Position numbers and translations under genes: made by a program. The notes below the pieces were generated by a model, which saw only the letters and a program-made list of their open reading frames with translations, ran no database searches and was not told where the DNA came from. This document shows positions 5,224 through 11,703 of a stretch of DNA of 25,633 nt, in pieces (position 1 is the first letter of the stretch; every line of letters begins with the position of its first letter). This DNA is from a virus (taxonomy: Duplodnaviria > Heunggongvirae > Uroviricota > Caudoviricetes): the IMG/VR virus record IMGVR_UViG_2778261217_000004, positions 1 through 25,633 of that record. One strand, 5' to 3'.

Positions 5224-5634
5224 TTAGTGATTCAGGCCATTACCGCGTCCGTCGAAAAAAACTTCCACGAGCAAATCACGGGTATAAGTGCGCTCGATGC
5301 CGCGATGCAGATATAGCCGTCCGCGTAAATTAGCTGATGCAGTCCAGGTACCATCTTTGTGTTTGACCAGCATTCCTGGCATGACCGCACCTCGATTAAC
5401 GGTCTGCGTTCCGTAATGTTGATGAACCATAAAAACTCCTGCCCGTAAGCTGGGCTGCTGAACATATAGAGACTTCTGCGCGTATTCAGGCGGTGGATGG
5501 CCGCCGGTTGTCATAACTAAGCCGCCTCGTTGAAGCGACTGAGGTATGAGGTGTTGAGTTGATTTCAGCTGGTCACACCGACGTTCACGCGTCCGTTTCA
5601 CCCCTCGCACTCCCCGGAGCCTGCCGAAATTCAA
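5224..5634 (-). CDS. Hypothetical protein, first ORF downstream of candidate pL; start uncertain (TTG at 5634, internal ATG with AGGAG RBS at 5430)
   Basis: 136-codon open frame; N-terminal arginine-rich stretch [15 protein letters not shown]; internal start MVHQHYG preceded by AGGAG. Confidence 0.4.
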
Positions 5635-5699: not shown

Positions 5700-5790
5700 A
5701 CATGGTGATAATAGCTATTGCTATTGGTGGTATCAATACTTATTGCTATTGATTGATGTGTTTTGATATTAACTGTTTGATAGCAAAAAG
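5700..5790 (-). promoter_or_regulatory. Candidate OL/pL: leftward sigma70 promoter with operator repeats
   Basis: Minus strand TTGATA (5731-5736) - 17 nt - TATTAT (5708-5713); ATAGCAAT/ATTGCTAT motif repeated, same motif as in the cI-cro intergenic region. Confidence 0.5.
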
Positions 5791-5874
5791 AATTAATTTT
5801 GTGACTTGCATCGCATAGCGATAACTGAAGGGAGGTTGTGGTGGTTTTTCGAACGGTTTGTGTGATGAGGGGAG

Positions 5875-5906
5875 GGGACAAAAGAAAACCCGGCACGGTG
5901 GCCGGG
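5875..5906 (-). terminator. Intrinsic terminator ending the cI / ImmA-like / PIN-like transcription unit
   Basis: Minus-strand hairpin CCCGGCCACCGTGCCGGG followed by TTTTCTTTTG, 6 nt after the stop of the 5912-6424 gene. Confidence 0.65.
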
Positions 5907-5911
5907 ACGTT

Positions 5912-6424
5912 TTATTTCAAAGAAAAATTATGACTAGCGTATCTTGGAAGAAATTCATATAGTGTTAATGTCTTAACGCCGTGAGAAGCAGCAGCATCCG
6001 GGATCATTATTCTTTTTTTAGGTTTGCCACCGGATGGTTTCTCATGGGTAATAATAGTATATCCATGTGTCATCGCATGGGCTATTAAAAAAGCATCTGC
6101 TTTTTCATGGCTTGCAAAATCAAACTTTGCCTTTTCGGTAACATCTAATTTAGTTGACCAATTTATTAACTTTGCATAATTTTCTATTGAACTATGCTCA
6201 TCTTCGAAGAATGATGATGGTAACTCTTCTTTAATCCATTTACACAATGGATCATCTTTTGCACATAGTTCTTTTTTTACAGCATTAATGCTATAAATCA
6301 GACCATTCATGTGTAAAGCGAGAAGAAAATCCCAAAATATTTTGCAATAATTGAAGTTATATGCAAAGTTTTTTGCCTCTATGAAGACATTACTATCAAT
6401 TAAGAATTTTCCATTATGAATCAT
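5912..6424 (-). CDS. PIN-like (DUF4411-type) predicted nuclease
   Basis: 170 aa; N-terminal FLIDSNVFIEA resembles the first strand and Asp of PIN domains; ATGA start-stop overlap with upstream metallopeptidase gene. Confidence 0.7.
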   Translation of the reverse strand: MIHNGKFLIDSNVFIEAKNFAYNFNYCKIFWDFLLALHMNGLIYSINAVKKELCAKDDPLCKWIKEELPSSFFEDEHSSIENYAKLINWSTKLDVTEKAKFDFASHEKADAFLIAHAMTHGYTIITHEKPSGGKPKKRIMIPDAAASHGVKTLTLYEFLPRYASHNFSLK

Positions 6425-7560
6425 AGAGATTCTCGTTTTTTATAAAATTCAACAACTGTATCTGCTTTTACATTTAGCAGTACGCCTGCTTCCCTTAATG
6501 GTAATTGTTGAGACATTGCTTTGGAAATTATTATATTCGTAAGTTTTGGACTGTTACGAACAGGTAATGTGTTAAAGAAAGAACCACCATTAGATTCTTT
6601 TTTGGGCTTATTGTAAGCTTGATCTTTAATTATCTCCAAAGTGTTTCTTTCTATCAAATCTAATTGTAACGCTTTGATTGCACAAGCGAAATCACTAACC
6701 TTAAATAACTTAGAAACCTCTTTTACCCGATAATAATTATTATCGCTGGATGCATTAAGCCAGAAAGATTTGAAGAGATTATCAGGCATTAAGATTTCAG
6801 CAGCAACTTTATTACAAAAAGATTCTATGTTTTTTTCTGTGTCCCACCCAGAGACTCCATCGACTCCAAGCCAAAGATGAGCCACCTCATGAAATAATGT
6901 AAATACCTGCGCAGATAACGCGTCCGAGCTATTTACAAAAATGATCGGAGCAACGCTATCAGATATACAGAAACCACGAAACTCTCGCGTGTCAAGTTTT
7001 CTTTTATTATTATTACCCACAACACCATTCTTGAAAACTAATACGCCAGTGTCTTCTATTAGTTTTGCCACTTTAGAAAAATAGCTCTCAAAAGTGACAT
7101 TTTTTATCTCTTTTTGTATATCAAAATGTATTGTGTTTGCTATGTCTGTAGCAACAACCTTATAATTTAATTTTCTATTAAATTTAAATTTACCAATAAA
7201 ATCGAGTGGATCATCATTACCATTTTCTCTTAAATAGTCTTTGTACCACTCAAGTTTATATTCTATATCATAGTAAACATCAAAAAAATCTTTTCCTAAC
7301 TCACGGCTATTTATAGCTTGCCTTAAGTCAGGGATCTTGGGTTTGGCTGGAGTTGGTGGCGTTTCAAGAAATAAAAAACCGAAAGGGATTCCTCCAATTT
7401 TTGCCAGTTTTTCTGCTGCGGATTTACTTACCACTCCGTTAAGAAATTTATTAATCTTTTTGGGCATGACTTGGTCAGCAAGAGTTTCGATAGAAACTCC
7501 TTGAGAATTTGCTATCCAATCAATCATCTTCCTAGACAATTGAAATTCAACCGCTGCCAT
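6421..7560 (-). CDS. HTH-containing ImmA/IrrE-family zinc metallopeptidase (COG2856/DUF955-like)
   Basis: 379 aa; N-terminal HTH-like segment; HExxH motif HEVAHLWLG; AGGTGA RBS. Confidence 0.75.
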   Translation of the reverse strand: MAAVEFQLSRKMIDWIANSQGVSIETLADQVMPKKINKFLNGVVSKSAAEKLAKIGGIPFGFLFLETPPTPAKPKIPDLRQAINSRELGKDFFDVYYDIEYKLEWYKDYLRENGNDDPLDFIGKFKFNRKLNYKVVATDIANTIHFDIQKEIKNVTFESYFSKVAKLIEDTGVLVFKNGVVGNNNKRKLDTREFRGFCISDSVAPIIFVNSSDALSAQVFTLFHEVAHLWLGVDGVSGWDTEKNIESFCNKVAAEILMPDNLFKSFWLNASSDNNYYRVKEVSKLFKVSDFACAIKALQLDLIERNTLEIIKDQAYNKPKKESNGGSFFNTLPVRNSPKLTNIIISKAMSQQLPLREAGVLLNVKADTVVEFYKKRESL

Positions 7561-7689: not shown

Positions 7690-8382
7690 CTACCCATGCT
7701 TTCTATATGTCTGCGGCATGCTCCCGATGACTTTCCCGAAGATGAACACGCGGTTCATCTCGTCTTTCTCGATCGGGTCCCACGGTGAGTAGCTCTTGTT
7801 ATCAGAGATAACCAGCAGCTTATCCTTCATCATTTGCAGGCGCTTTACATGGGCGGTGTCGTCATACAGAAACGCATAGATACCATCACCGTCGAAAGAT
7901 TTAACAGTGATATCAACGAACAGAAGATCACCTGGTTCGATCGTTCCTGACATGCTGTCACCGCGTACGTTAATGATGCGGATATTTTCTGCCTTCCTGC
8001 CATCGAACATGTGACGAGCATCGTCAAACGAGTACTCAACCGAGCGTAGAACTTCTACAAACTCACGGTTGATGACTCCCGGCCCGGCACTCACTTCTAT
8101 ATCAAGAACGTCAATCTTGAAGTATTTGGGATGGTTGGCAGTAGGCTTCCCTAATTGTTGACCGTCATTTCTCATCGGGCCTATGCCTGATGAGAGCCAC
8201 TCTGTTCGAACACCCAATGCATTAGCTATTTCAACAATTTTTGTTGAGCCGCGCGCGTTGCCGCTTGTCAGTCTCCAGATTGTGGGTTGAGCTACGCCAG
8301 ACGCCTTTGCAAGAGCGCCTTGAGACATTCCAGATTGTTCCATCGCTAGGTTTAAGCGATCAGCAAGAGTTTCTTTTTTCAT
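7690..8382 (-). CDS. cI: CI-type prophage repressor (HTH plus LexA-like S24 peptidase domain)
   Basis: N-terminal HTH (MSQGALAKASGVAQPTIWRL), C-terminal S24 motifs GDSM and VKRL; start taken as ATG 8380-8382, the open frame extends to TTG at 8418. Confidence 0.9.
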   Translation of the reverse strand: MKKETLADRLNLAMEQSGMSQGALAKASGVAQPTIWRLTSGNARGSTKIVEIANALGVRTEWLSSGIGPMRNDGQQLGKPTANHPKYFKIDVLDIEVSAGPGVINREFVEVLRSVEYSFDDARHMFDGRKAENIRIINVRGDSMSGTIEPGDLLFVDITVKSFDGDGIYAFLYDDTAHVKRLQMMKDKLLVISDNKSYSPWDPIEKDEMNRVFIFGKVIGSMPQTYRKHG

Positions 8383-8492
8383 AAGTTTTAATTTATACGC
8401 TTGCGTATTGATGGTCAAAACACGTTTTGCTATTGTTATGATTAATACGCATTGCTATTATTTATTCATTGCAATACCAATAGGAATTGATA
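8383..8492. promoter_or_regulatory. OR / PRM / PR divergent regulatory region
   Basis: Perfect palindrome ATACGCTTGCGTAT (8395-8408); ATTGCTAT repeats; rightward TTGTTA (8433-8438) - 17 nt - TATTAT (8456-8461). Confidence 0.6.
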
Positions 8493-8720
8493 ATGACAAA
8501 TCAAACCATTCAACTCGCAATCAGTATTACAGGTAGTCAAAAACGACTGGCAGATCTATGCGGTGTAGCCCAACCCACTGTTTGGCGTTGGCTACACGGT
8601 GGCGGAATTGATGCCCGCTATGTAATGAAAATTGTCTCAGCCACTGGTGGAAAGATTAAACCAGCAGATATTCGTCCCGACCTCGCACCATTGTTTAACG
8701 CGAGTAATTCTGCCGCCTAA
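8493..8720 (+). CDS. cro: Cro-like HTH regulator
   Basis: Small ORF divergent from cI; HTH QKRLADLCGVAQPTVWRW; AGGA RBS 7 nt before ATG 8493; track ORF begins at TTG 8487. Confidence 0.8.
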   Translation: MTNQTIQLAISITGSQKRLADLCGVAQPTVWRWLHGGGIDARYVMKIVSATGGKIKPADIRPDLAPLFNASNSAA

Positions 8721-8744: not shown

Positions 8745-9290
8745 ATGACTATGCAACCACTTACATACCAACAGACTAGCGGATTTAGCCCGACTGCGGT
8801 GATAAATCGTTCTCAAACAAAACAAGCTCCAGGCCACGAAAAAATCCGTGATGCCGTCCGCGCCTGGTCGGCTGCAGATAATCAGGATGTTGTTGCCGCA
8901 CTCATTGTGAATGAGTATCGGGAGCAGGGCGGCGGCACCATCGATTTCCCTGATGATGTCAGCCGTGCACGCCAGAAGCTGTTCCGCTTCCTCGATAACA
9001 AATTCGATTCTGAAAAATACCGAAATAACGTGCGTGAACTGACCCCGGCAATTCTGGCGGTACTACCGCTGGAATATCGCGGTTACCTGGTTGAGCAGGA
9101 TAGCTTTATGGCTAGGTTGGCTGAAATGGAAAAGGAACTCAGTGAGGCAAAACAGGCTGTCATTCTCAACGCACCACGCCACCAGAAACTGAAGGAGATG
9201 AGTGAAGGCATTGTGTCGATGTTTCGAGTGGACCCGGATCTGGCTGGTCCATTGATGGCGATGGTCACCACCATGCTGGGGGCAATATGA
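8745..9290 (+). CDS. YdaT-family protein in the cII position
   Basis: 181 aa; NEYREQGGG and LTPAILAVLPLEYR resemble Rac YdaT; directly after cro. Confidence 0.7.
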   Translation: MTMQPLTYQQTSGFSPTAVINRSQTKQAPGHEKIRDAVRAWSAADNQDVVAALIVNEYREQGGGTIDFPDDVSRARQKLFRFLDNKFDSEKYRNNVRELTPAILAVLPLEYRGYLVEQDSFMARLAEMEKELSEAKQAVILNAPRHQKLKEMSEGIVSMFRVDPDLAGPLMAMVTTMLGAI

Positions 9291-11303: not shown

Positions 11304-11370
11304 TGAAACAGGTGAGTTGAGTTCAAACTGTAGTACAATTCTCTCCAGTTTGAACAGGAAAGAATATGCT

Positions 11371-11703
11371 ATGAACCCTTATATTTATCTTGGTGGTGCA
11401 ATACTTGCAGAGGTCATTGGTACAACCTTAATGAAGTTTTCAGAAGGTTTTACACGATTATGGCCATCTGTTGGTACAATTATTTGTTATTGTGCATCAT
11501 TCTGGTTATTAGCTCAGACGCTGGCTTATATTCCTACAGGGATTGCTTATGCTATCTGGTCAGGAGTCGGTATTGTCCTGATTAGTTTACTGTCATGGGG
11601 ATTTTTCGGCCAACGGCTGGACCTGCCAGCCATTATAGGCATGATGTTGATTTGTGCCGGTGTGTTGGTTATTAATTTATTGTCACGAAGCACACCACAT
11701 TAA
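11371..11703 (+). CDS. emrE: SMR-family multidrug efflux transporter EmrE
   Basis: 110 aa from MNPYIYLGGAILAEVIGTTLMKFSEGF..., matching E. coli EmrE; track ORF starts further upstream at 11317. Confidence 0.93.
   Translation: MNPYIYLGGAILAEVIGTTLMKFSEGFTRLWPSVGTIICYCASFWLLAQTLAYIPTGIAYAIWSGVGIVLISLLSWGFFGQRLDLPAIIGMMLICAGVLVINLLSRSTPH

Follow-up and report, generated by a model that had tools for sequence, protein, structure and literature searches.

The 110-bp spacer between the divergent cI and cro genes described here (exactly positions 8383–8492) is very probably a lambda/434-type tripartite right operator, made up of a single family of 14-bp pseudo-palindromic sites. The half-site of this family is ATA followed by C/G and then G/C (ATACGC or ATAGCAA), with a variable centre. 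The window, by which we mean the whole stretch of 25,633 nucleotides that was analysed, is a lambdoid prophage, and it carries the elements of a lambdoid OR switch: repressor and cro genes that diverge from a short spacer, three related and partly symmetric sites within that spacer, and a second cluster of sites on the predicted leftward early promoter PL. We interpret the whole as a genuine operator set in the lambda/434 style, conserved and belonging to a common, uncharacterised immunity type. An earlier note on this DNA had recognised the region as an OR operator/promoter region with a GCTAT-type motif common to OL, and this reading stands; its division of the motifs into two operator families does not, because ATACGC and (T)TGCTAT are fused at OR1, all sites share one 25-bp register, and the left half of OR3 switches from one variant to the other among relatives.

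The concept is that of the textbook lambda/434-type switch, and the mechanism is not new. The operator map (14-bp ATA..TAT sites, OR1–3 and OL1–2) is of use for prophage annotation, for predicting homo- and heteroimmunity, and for the design of reporter and induction experiments.

Architecture of the right operator

With the cI start codon placed from homologues, the spacer contains three 14-bp sites of the form ATA-S-S-N4-S-S-TAT at intervals of exactly 25 bp, OR2 being equally far from OR1 and OR3 (Table 1). OR2 adjoins the −35 hexamer of the predicted PRM, starting 2 bp beyond it, and has one base in common with the −35 hexamer of the predicted PR. The same register was returned by an independent repeat finder, which aligned the OR3 and OR1 copies at 50 bp, the OR2 and OR1 copies at 25 bp, and OL1 and OL2 at 25 bp.

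The motifs quoted in the earlier note had to be partly redrawn. ATACGCTTGCGTAT is present at 8395–8408 but is not the perfect 14-bp palindrome that had been claimed, as its TT centre is non-symmetric (the reverse complement is ATACGCAAGCGTAT). A repeat does occupy 8427–8434 and 8452–8459, where ATTGCTAT-type copies had been placed, but the 8-mer is TTGCTATT; ATTGCTAT itself occurs only at 8451–8458, and the first copy reads TTTGCTAT. Overlooked altogether was a third ATACGC, at 8445–8450, which is fused directly to the ATTGCTAT half to form OR1. Since this ATACGC abuts ATTGCTAT, both motifs belong to a single 14-bp site, each forming one half of it. The half-sites are combined differently from site to site: OR3 is made of two ATAC halves, OL1 of two ATAG halves, and OR1 and OL2 of one each, while OR2 joins a weak ACACG left half to an ATAG-type right half.

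A candidate fourth site in the cro leader lies 29–30 bp from OR1, and its ATAC is invariant in 32/32 haplotypes of the relatives described below. Other candidates were set aside. TTGCAA is present at 8469–8474, as the earlier note had it, but we rejected it as an operator element; it is unconserved in relatives, with 0.1–0.45 bits at 8469–8471 and only position 8474 invariant. A second 6-2-6 inverted repeat, CAAAACACGTTTTG (8416–8429), was rejected as a functional palindrome because position 8428 varies freely without compensation. A YdaT-like site at 8487–8504 is probably due to chance.

Table 1. Operator sites, predicted promoters and neighbouring genes in the window (scores are those of the half-site weight matrix; ranks are within the window)
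Feature	Position	Strand	Sequence	Score (rank)	Remarks
OR3	8395..8408		ATACGCTTGCGTAT	18.3 (second)	6-bp arms, TT centre; between −35 and −10 of predicted PRM
OR2	8420..8433		ACACGTTTTGCTAT	12.2	weak site; only right half (GCTAT) conserved
OR1	8445..8458		ATACGCATTGCTAT	18.4 (best)	mixed, ATACGC half and ATAGCAA half; last 3 bp in PR −10
Candidate fourth site	8474..8487		ATACCAATAGGAAT	12.4 (fifth)	uncertain, half-conserved; in cro leader; overlaps Shine-Dalgarno AGGA (8482–8485)
OL1	5711..5724		ATAGCTATTGCTAT	16.0 (third)	3-bp overlap with PL −10, geometry as OR1/PR
OL2	5736..5749		ATACTTATTGCTAT	14.9 (fourth)	25 bp from OL1; 1 bp common with PL −35, as OR2/PR
Candidate OL3	5780..5793		ATAGCAAAAAGAAT	8.5	one good half-site; low confidence
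Predicted PR	8433..8461	+		 	TTGTTA, 17-bp spacer, TATTAT; TG upstream of −10; drives cro; consensus scan
Predicted PRM	8390..8418	−		 	TTGACC (8418–8413), 17-bp spacer, TAAATT (8395–8390); consensus scan; both hexamers conserved in relatives
Predicted PL	5708..5736	−		 	TTGATA, 17-bp spacer, TATTAT; consensus scan; region homologous to BTP1 OL/PL
DUF4411 cargo gene	5912..6424			 	between cI and leftward early promoter, place of lambda rexAB
HTH-Peptidase_M78 (ImmA/IrrE-like) cargo gene	6421..7560			 	between cI and leftward early promoter, place of lambda rexAB
cI repressor	7690..8382	−		 	HTH_3 N-terminal and Peptidase_S24 autocleavage domains; Pfam
cro	8493..8720	+		 	YdaS-family HTH protein; Pfam PF15943, 54.6 bits
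YdaT-family protein	8745..9290			 	PF06254, 102.7 bits; in cII position, with O, P and ren after it

Left operator and predicted promoters

The repeat motif of OR recurs at the left operator, as had been proposed, with TTGCTATT at 5718–5725 and 5743–5750; the earlier remark that ATACGC is missing from the candidate OL was also borne out, with no copy in 5700–5800. A third left site in the strict 25-bp register (5761–5774) was looked for, and no match was found there. Candidate OL3 lies 44 bp from OL2, and in the Salmonella phage BTP1 a sequence identical at 13/14 positions is found at the same distance.

A consensus scan places the predicted PR, PRM and PL onto the operator sites, although consensus promoter matches in the region overall show no enrichment (13 vs 9.4 expected). 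The overlap of the sites with a rightward promoter, likewise put forward in the earlier note, is seen at the predicted PR, with OR1 on its −10 and OR2 on its −35 hexamer. Because the −10 and −35 overlaps at OR1 and OR2 are identical to those at OL1 and OL2, PR and PL appear as mirror copies of one promoter–operator cassette. This arrangement also explains the repeated 8-mer TTGCTATT: the last base of the promoter-proximal GCTAT half-site is also the first T of a −35 (TTGnnn) or −10 (TATTAT) hexamer. In relatives, the TTG of the PR −35 and the entire TATTAT are conserved. On the other strand, the −10 hexamer of PRM ends 7 bp from the cI ATG (8382), a spacing that would put the transcription start at or beside the ATG and thus predicts a leaderless or nearly leaderless cI mRNA.

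Motif counts and matrix search

The earlier note had named motif counts against chance in an AT-rich background as a check on its motifs, and by raw counts the enrichment is weak for both of them. Over the whole window, TTGCTATT occurs 5 times vs 1.6 expected (the copies at 8427–8434, 8452–8459, 5718–5725 and 5743–5750 are among the five), a count reached in 5/100 shuffles, and ATACGC occurs 19 times vs 11 expected. The window also has many 6-2-6 inverted repeats (18 vs 7.3 expected), so that a palindrome by itself is unremarkable here, and the G+C content of the region is 28%.

A more discriminating signal came from a symmetric weight matrix of the half-site, for which 21 OR triplets from relatives (none from the window, and no OL sites) served as the training set; position 1 of the half-site is A in 126/126 training half-sites. 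The six best of about 25,600 positions in the window are, in order, OR1, OR3, OL1, OL2, the candidate at 8474 and OR2 (Table 1), and the next match scores 9.4. In first-order Markov random sequences, matches at the fifth-best score (12.43) numbered 0.5 on average and 3 at most over 200 trials. OR3 scored about as high as OR1, and the matrix therefore shows no sign of a weaker OR3. Thus, despite the weak raw-count enrichment, the operator signal is real once position and conservation are considered.

Conservation of the operators among relatives

To place these sites in a wider context, we compared diverged relatives with 61–95% identity in the CI N-terminal domain, drawn from phage records and genomes (a single genome for each species). 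The set includes the Klebsiella phage ST11-VIM1phi8.2, Salmonella BTP1 and a Yersinia phage, as well as prophages of Kluyvera, Citrobacter, Enterobacter, Proteus, Providencia, Morganella and Serratia. The OR sites are collinear in 31 loci; their spacing is 25/25 bp, with 24/25 bp found in more distant loci. As the relatives' OR regions are homologous to that of the window, their conservation is statistically non-independent evidence, and it is in this sense that the following values should be read: across 32 OR haplotypes (from Escherichia, Klebsiella, Salmonella, Yersinia, Kluyvera, Enterobacter, Proteus, Providencia, Morganella and Serratia), no variation is seen in the outer ATA/TAT of OR1 and OR3 (2.0 bits), the ends of OR3 being ATA and GTAT, whereas the spacer outside the promoter hexamers retains 1.0 bit and the stretch past the PR −10 hexamer 0.6 bit. 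OR1 is nearly invariant as a whole. The same contrast is seen at close range, where among 35 OR haplotypes from 80 loci with 98–100% identical CI we counted 0.5 mismatches to the window per operator position vs 4.1 per spacer position.

Among relatives, the cI-proximal (left) half of OR3 alternates between ATACG, ATAGC, ATAGT and ATAAG. Other half-sites keep to one variant in every relative: the ATAC type on the right of OR3 and on the left of OR1, the ATAG type on the right of both OR1 and OR2. Perfect palindromes of both variants exist, namely ATACGCATGCGTAT in one relative (L107) and ATAGCAATTGCTAT in phage Fraca. An OL cluster lies downstream of cI in each relative, and these clusters abound in ATACG halves (e.g., ATAGCAATACGTAT and ATAGCAATGCGTAT); one of them (L090) contains the very sequence of the window's OR1, ATACGCATTGCTAT. 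Among the distinct sites with two strong halves in relatives, 29 are mixed ATAC/ATAG vs 6 ATAC/ATAC and 6 ATAG/ATAG, and the mixed class is the commonest both at OR and at OL. Such a predominance of mixed sites is not what two separate homodimeric regulators with private palindromes would produce.

Proteins expected to read the sites

The N-terminal domain of CI is homologous to Cro (BLASTP E 4e-9), and the turn and the start of the recognition helix, GVAQPT(I/V)WR, are common to the two proteins in the window and in all collinear relatives. Beyond QPT(I/V)WR the helices diverge, to LTSG in CI and WLHGGG in Cro. Given the common GVAQPT(I/V)WR, both proteins should read the same sites. A Cro homologue is found beside every collinear OR whose cro side was covered. 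The CI N-terminal domain can also be aligned with the 434 repressor without gaps over 60 residues (E 2e-6 to 1e-5), with Gln28 of 434 falling on Gln32 of CI. In crystal structures of the 434 repressor–operator complex, Gln28 contacts the adenine at operator position 1. The S24 domain of CI is well supported (Peptidase_S24, 67 bits, Pfam), UmuD is among its matches, and self-cleavage is predicted.

Two further proteins encoded nearby had been proposed earlier as a second regulator acting on the palindrome, and both are ruled out, because the palindrome is kept in relatives that lack the one or the other. The HTH-ImmA protein is a cargo protein present in only 1/80 phages with 98–100% identical CI, and the exact palindrome is present in 79/80 of these phages. 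Relatives without a YdaT homologue (L001, L092, L101 and L105) also have the exact palindrome. The only characterised YdaT recognises TTGATT-N6-AATCAA, at the ydaS end (PMC9986795); allowing up to 3 mismatches, we found no match to this different site at 8395–8408. A search for a YdaT operator as an inverted repeat at the cro/ydaT junction returned trivial 6-mers only.

Proposed switch and alternative readings

We envision that dimers of CI (434-like HTH plus LexA-like S24) and dimers of Cro read the same sites. In the lysogen, CI dimers would occupy OR1 and the weak OR2 and so block PR: with OR1 on the −10 hexamer and OR2 beside the −35 hexamer, occupancy would block cro transcription. As OR2 keeps only one conserved half-site, its filling by CI is likely to be cooperative. 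PL, 2.7 kb away, would be blocked in the same manner through OL1 and OL2, which repeat the OR1/OR2 geometry, and looping between OL and OR may take place. As lambda CI does, CI at OR2 could activate PRM from its place immediately before the −35 hexamer. Since OR3 lies between the −35 and −10 hexamers of PRM, its occupancy would shut off cI; OR3 may be filled by CI at high concentration or by Cro early in lytic growth. RecA-stimulated self-cleavage through the S24 domain would lift repression. In lysogens of the homologous BTP1 prophage, one start site serves both cI and the cargo gene downstream of it (PMC7067206), and this co-transcription fits a PRM-driven expression of the ImmA/DUF4411 pair in the window.

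The reading of the earlier note, with CI bound only to GCTAT/ATTGCTAT repeats at OR and OL and the ATACGC palindrome private to Cro alone, the YdaT-like protein or HTH-ImmA, is favored by the facts that OR3 is the sole site in the window with two ATACGC halves, that OL is without ATACGC and that OR3 is highly conserved; lambda Cro, too, prefers OR3. We nevertheless hold it to be very improbable. OR1, which keeps to the same 25-bp register, joins ATACGC to TTGCTAT, relatives may have ATAGC, ATAGT or ATAAG as the left half of OR3, and at the relatives' OL, where ATACG halves are frequent, mixed sites dominate. For the non-Cro candidates, ImmA occurs in only 1/80 loci, several loci that carry the exact palindrome are without YdaT, and the published YdaT site is unmatched at 8395–8408 (PMC9986795). 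Moreover, CI and Cro have a common recognition helix. A preference of Cro for OR3 may instead reflect differential affinity within one family. That the repeats are accidental features of AT-rich intergenic DNA with no regulatory role deserves even less credence: marginally enriched raw counts, the 18 inverted repeats in the window and the 28% G+C would allow it, but the six top matrix matches form two clusters on the three predicted promoters, the spacing is exactly 25 bp at OR and at OL, and the operator ends are invariant across genera while the spacers drift. We consider this reading effectively refuted by the conservation seen in the sequences.

Within the single-family operator that we favor, the half-site variants might constitute a discrimination code, one protein preferring ATACG(C) and the other ATAGC(AA). 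Through the number of halves of each kind in a site, CI and Cro would then fill the sites in opposite orders in spite of the common start of their recognition helices. In relatives, several half-sites never change variant (ATAC for OR3 right and OR1 left, ATAG for the right halves of OR1 and OR2), the CI and Cro helices diverge after QPT(I/V)WR, and the variable half-sites of lambda and 434 serve CI/Cro discrimination. The differences next to ATA could reflect a real discrimination between proteins. However, the left half of OR3 changes variant freely among relatives, and with both symmetric and all mixed forms found at OL the variants may be near-neutral. We thus treat such a code as a tentative idea, somewhat unlikely at present. 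The combined proposal that a half-site code sets opposite CI/Cro occupancy and that the fourth site (8474–8487) adds a control of cro absent in lambda is more doubtful still.

Comparison with known switches

The likeness to lambda extends over the whole immunity region. In both, cI and cro are divergent, three pseudo-palindromic sites follow one another at about 2.4 helical turns, OR1 and OR2 coincide with PR (here a predicted promoter), and OR3 is placed within PRM (likewise predicted here), with OR2 beside the PRM −35. CI has an S24 autocleavage domain, the cI mRNA is leaderless (as predicted here), a second operator set is found on PL some 2.7 kb off, and accessory genes between cI and OL take the position of rexAB. 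Unlike in lambda, the sites here measure 14 bp instead of 17 bp and have another sequence, CI and Cro are homologous with a common start of the recognition helix, OR2 has only one conserved half-site, OL has only two clear sites, and a YdaT-family protein takes the cII position.

Phage 434 has 14-bp operators, ACAA-N6-TTGT, and a repressor and Cro with similar recognition helices. The present system resembles it in the 14-bp length, the invariant outer bases (the first an invariant A) and the variable centre, in the gapless alignment of the CI N-terminal domain with the recognition-helix Gln kept, and in the helix 3 start common to repressor and Cro. It differs in the operator itself, ATA(C/G)(G/C)...TAT and not ACAA...TTGT, and in its YdaS-family Cro. 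Helix 3 reads QPTIWR here vs QQSIEQ in 434, which argues for a different, heteroimmune specificity. We therefore rejected membership in the imm434 group: the repressors are homologous, but the operator is not ACAA-N6-TTGT.

CP-933P shares the YdaS-family Cro and the YdaT-family protein at the cII position. There, the footprints of repressor and YdaS overlap on the same intergenic repeats, and the repressor gene is leaderless (PMC8630535, PMC9986795); the repeats are four, equally spaced and alternating between full and half conservation (PMC8630535). A similar alternation runs through the present sites, where OR3 and OR1 are fully conserved, OR2 between them is half conserved, and 8474 may hold a further half-site. 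On the other hand, the repressor here is of the CI type (HTH_3 plus S24) and not PaaR2, the paaA2-parE2 toxin–antitoxin genes are absent, and the repeat consensus of CP-933P, GTTTAGTAA (18-bp repeats), is unrelated; on direct reading, no copy of it was seen in 8383–8492.

Also close are the immunity regions of BTP1/ST104 type in Salmonella P22-like phages (PMC5322425, PMC7067206). The CI N-terminal domain of BTP1 is 88% identical to that of the window, its OR3, OR2 and OR1 are collinear with the same 25-bp spacing, its OL/PL region is homologous, and downstream of cI it has a cargo gene, bstA, that is co-transcribed with cI. BTP1 differs in having a lambda-type cII in place of YdaT and in its cargo. 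Also among the closest described systems is phage epsilon34, for which the operator consensus WTACRAWWTGTAT has been predicted (PMC2629481).

Distribution

In the literature searched, we found none of the five operator 14-mers and no description of the BTP1 or ST104 operators, so that the operators of a very common immunity type are without a description there. At ≥90% identity, the 110-bp spacer is present in 719/5,426 complete E. coli genomes (~13%). Near-identical immunity regions occur in the coliphages 4A7, Lambda_4C10, D2, Perceval and others and in 508 IMG/VR stretches, and related versions are found in Salmonella BTP1/ST104-type phages and in Klebsiella, Enterobacter, Proteus and other genera. 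The operator map also allows a correction of existing records, as the annotated cI start codons of BTP1 and of the Yersinia phage run through the operators.

Additional sequence elements around OR

Beyond the three sites of OR, the cro leader holds a further match to the operator matrix, ATACCAATAGGAAT, which ranks fifth among the matches in the window. Every one of the relatives' 32 haplotypes keeps the ATAC of this match, 29-30 bp away from OR1. The right half of the match and the Shine-Dalgarno sequence of cro overlap. The site may represent a half-conserved fourth operator. A switch with four repeats at equal spacing has been described for the YdaS-type system of CP-933P (PMC8630535), to which this possible fourth site can be compared.

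Two other elements in the same region were considered and set aside. The stretch TTGATAATGACAAATCAA departs at a single position from the YdaT site described in the literature, TTGATT-N6-AATCAA (PMC9986795); near-identical phages carry a G8489A polymorphism within it and the sequence is poorly conserved in the YdaT-bearing relatives, which together suggest a chance resemblance. A second inverted repeat, CAAAACACGTTTTG, overlaps both the -35 hexamer of PRM and the left half of OR2. Since position 8428, inside the repeat, varies freely among relatives, it is apparently not under selection as a palindrome.

Features in and around the immunity region of the window
Feature	Position	Strand	Location
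Operator-matrix match ATACCAATAGGAAT	8474-8487		cro leader
Sequence resembling the YdaT site, TTGATAATGACAAATCAA	8487-8504		covers cro start codon
Second 6-2-6 inverted repeat CAAAACACGTTTTG	8416-8429		
HTH-Peptidase_M78 (ImmA/IrrE-like) and DUF4411 genes	5912-7560	minus	rexAB position, cI to OL
G+C-rich hairpin, T runs on each side	5889-5906		directly downstream of DUF4411 gene
ORF	5224-5634	minus	directly downstream of PL
Small multidrug-resistance (EmrE/QacE-like) membrane protein gene	11317-11703		after ren

Mosaicism and deposited records of relatives

Phage IdasGreatGrand (locus L002, 4001-5144) is a mosaic relative that shares 95-98% identity with the window in the CI C-terminal domain and in the YdaT-like gene, whereas a different module stands in place of the window's OR, cro and N-terminal domain of CI. 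This swap shows where recombination delimits the immunity cassette, and the phage is probably heteroimmune.

In the records of BTP1 (L084, LT714109.2; 3465-3500) and a Yersinia phage (L087, OM046622.1; 3429-3494), the annotated cI start precedes the homologous ATG by 12 to 22 codons, and the reading frames extend through the operator region; these deposited start codons are probably wrong. A 1.6-kb contig of a 'Parachlamydiaceae' MAG (L099, JBKEAL010000003.1) bears a cI/OR region of the Enterobacter type, with exactly the sequence found in Enterobacter prophages, and is probably a binning contaminant.

Cargo and neighbouring genes

The M78 protein matches both the capP and RmrA models of PADLOC, where the DUF4411 protein has no match. 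Of the 80 IMG/VR phages whose CI is 98-100% identical, only 1 carries the gene pair, which may constitute an accessory module (moron) of the defence or toxin-antitoxin kind, expressed from PRM. The hairpin probably terminates transcription of the cI-cargo operon, and perhaps acts bidirectionally.

The protein encoded by the ORF below PL begins with an arginine-rich stretch, reminiscent of the RNA-binding motif in N-type antiterminators. The annotation of phage 4A7 shows the same order as the window, with an EmrE/QacE-like gene following ren.
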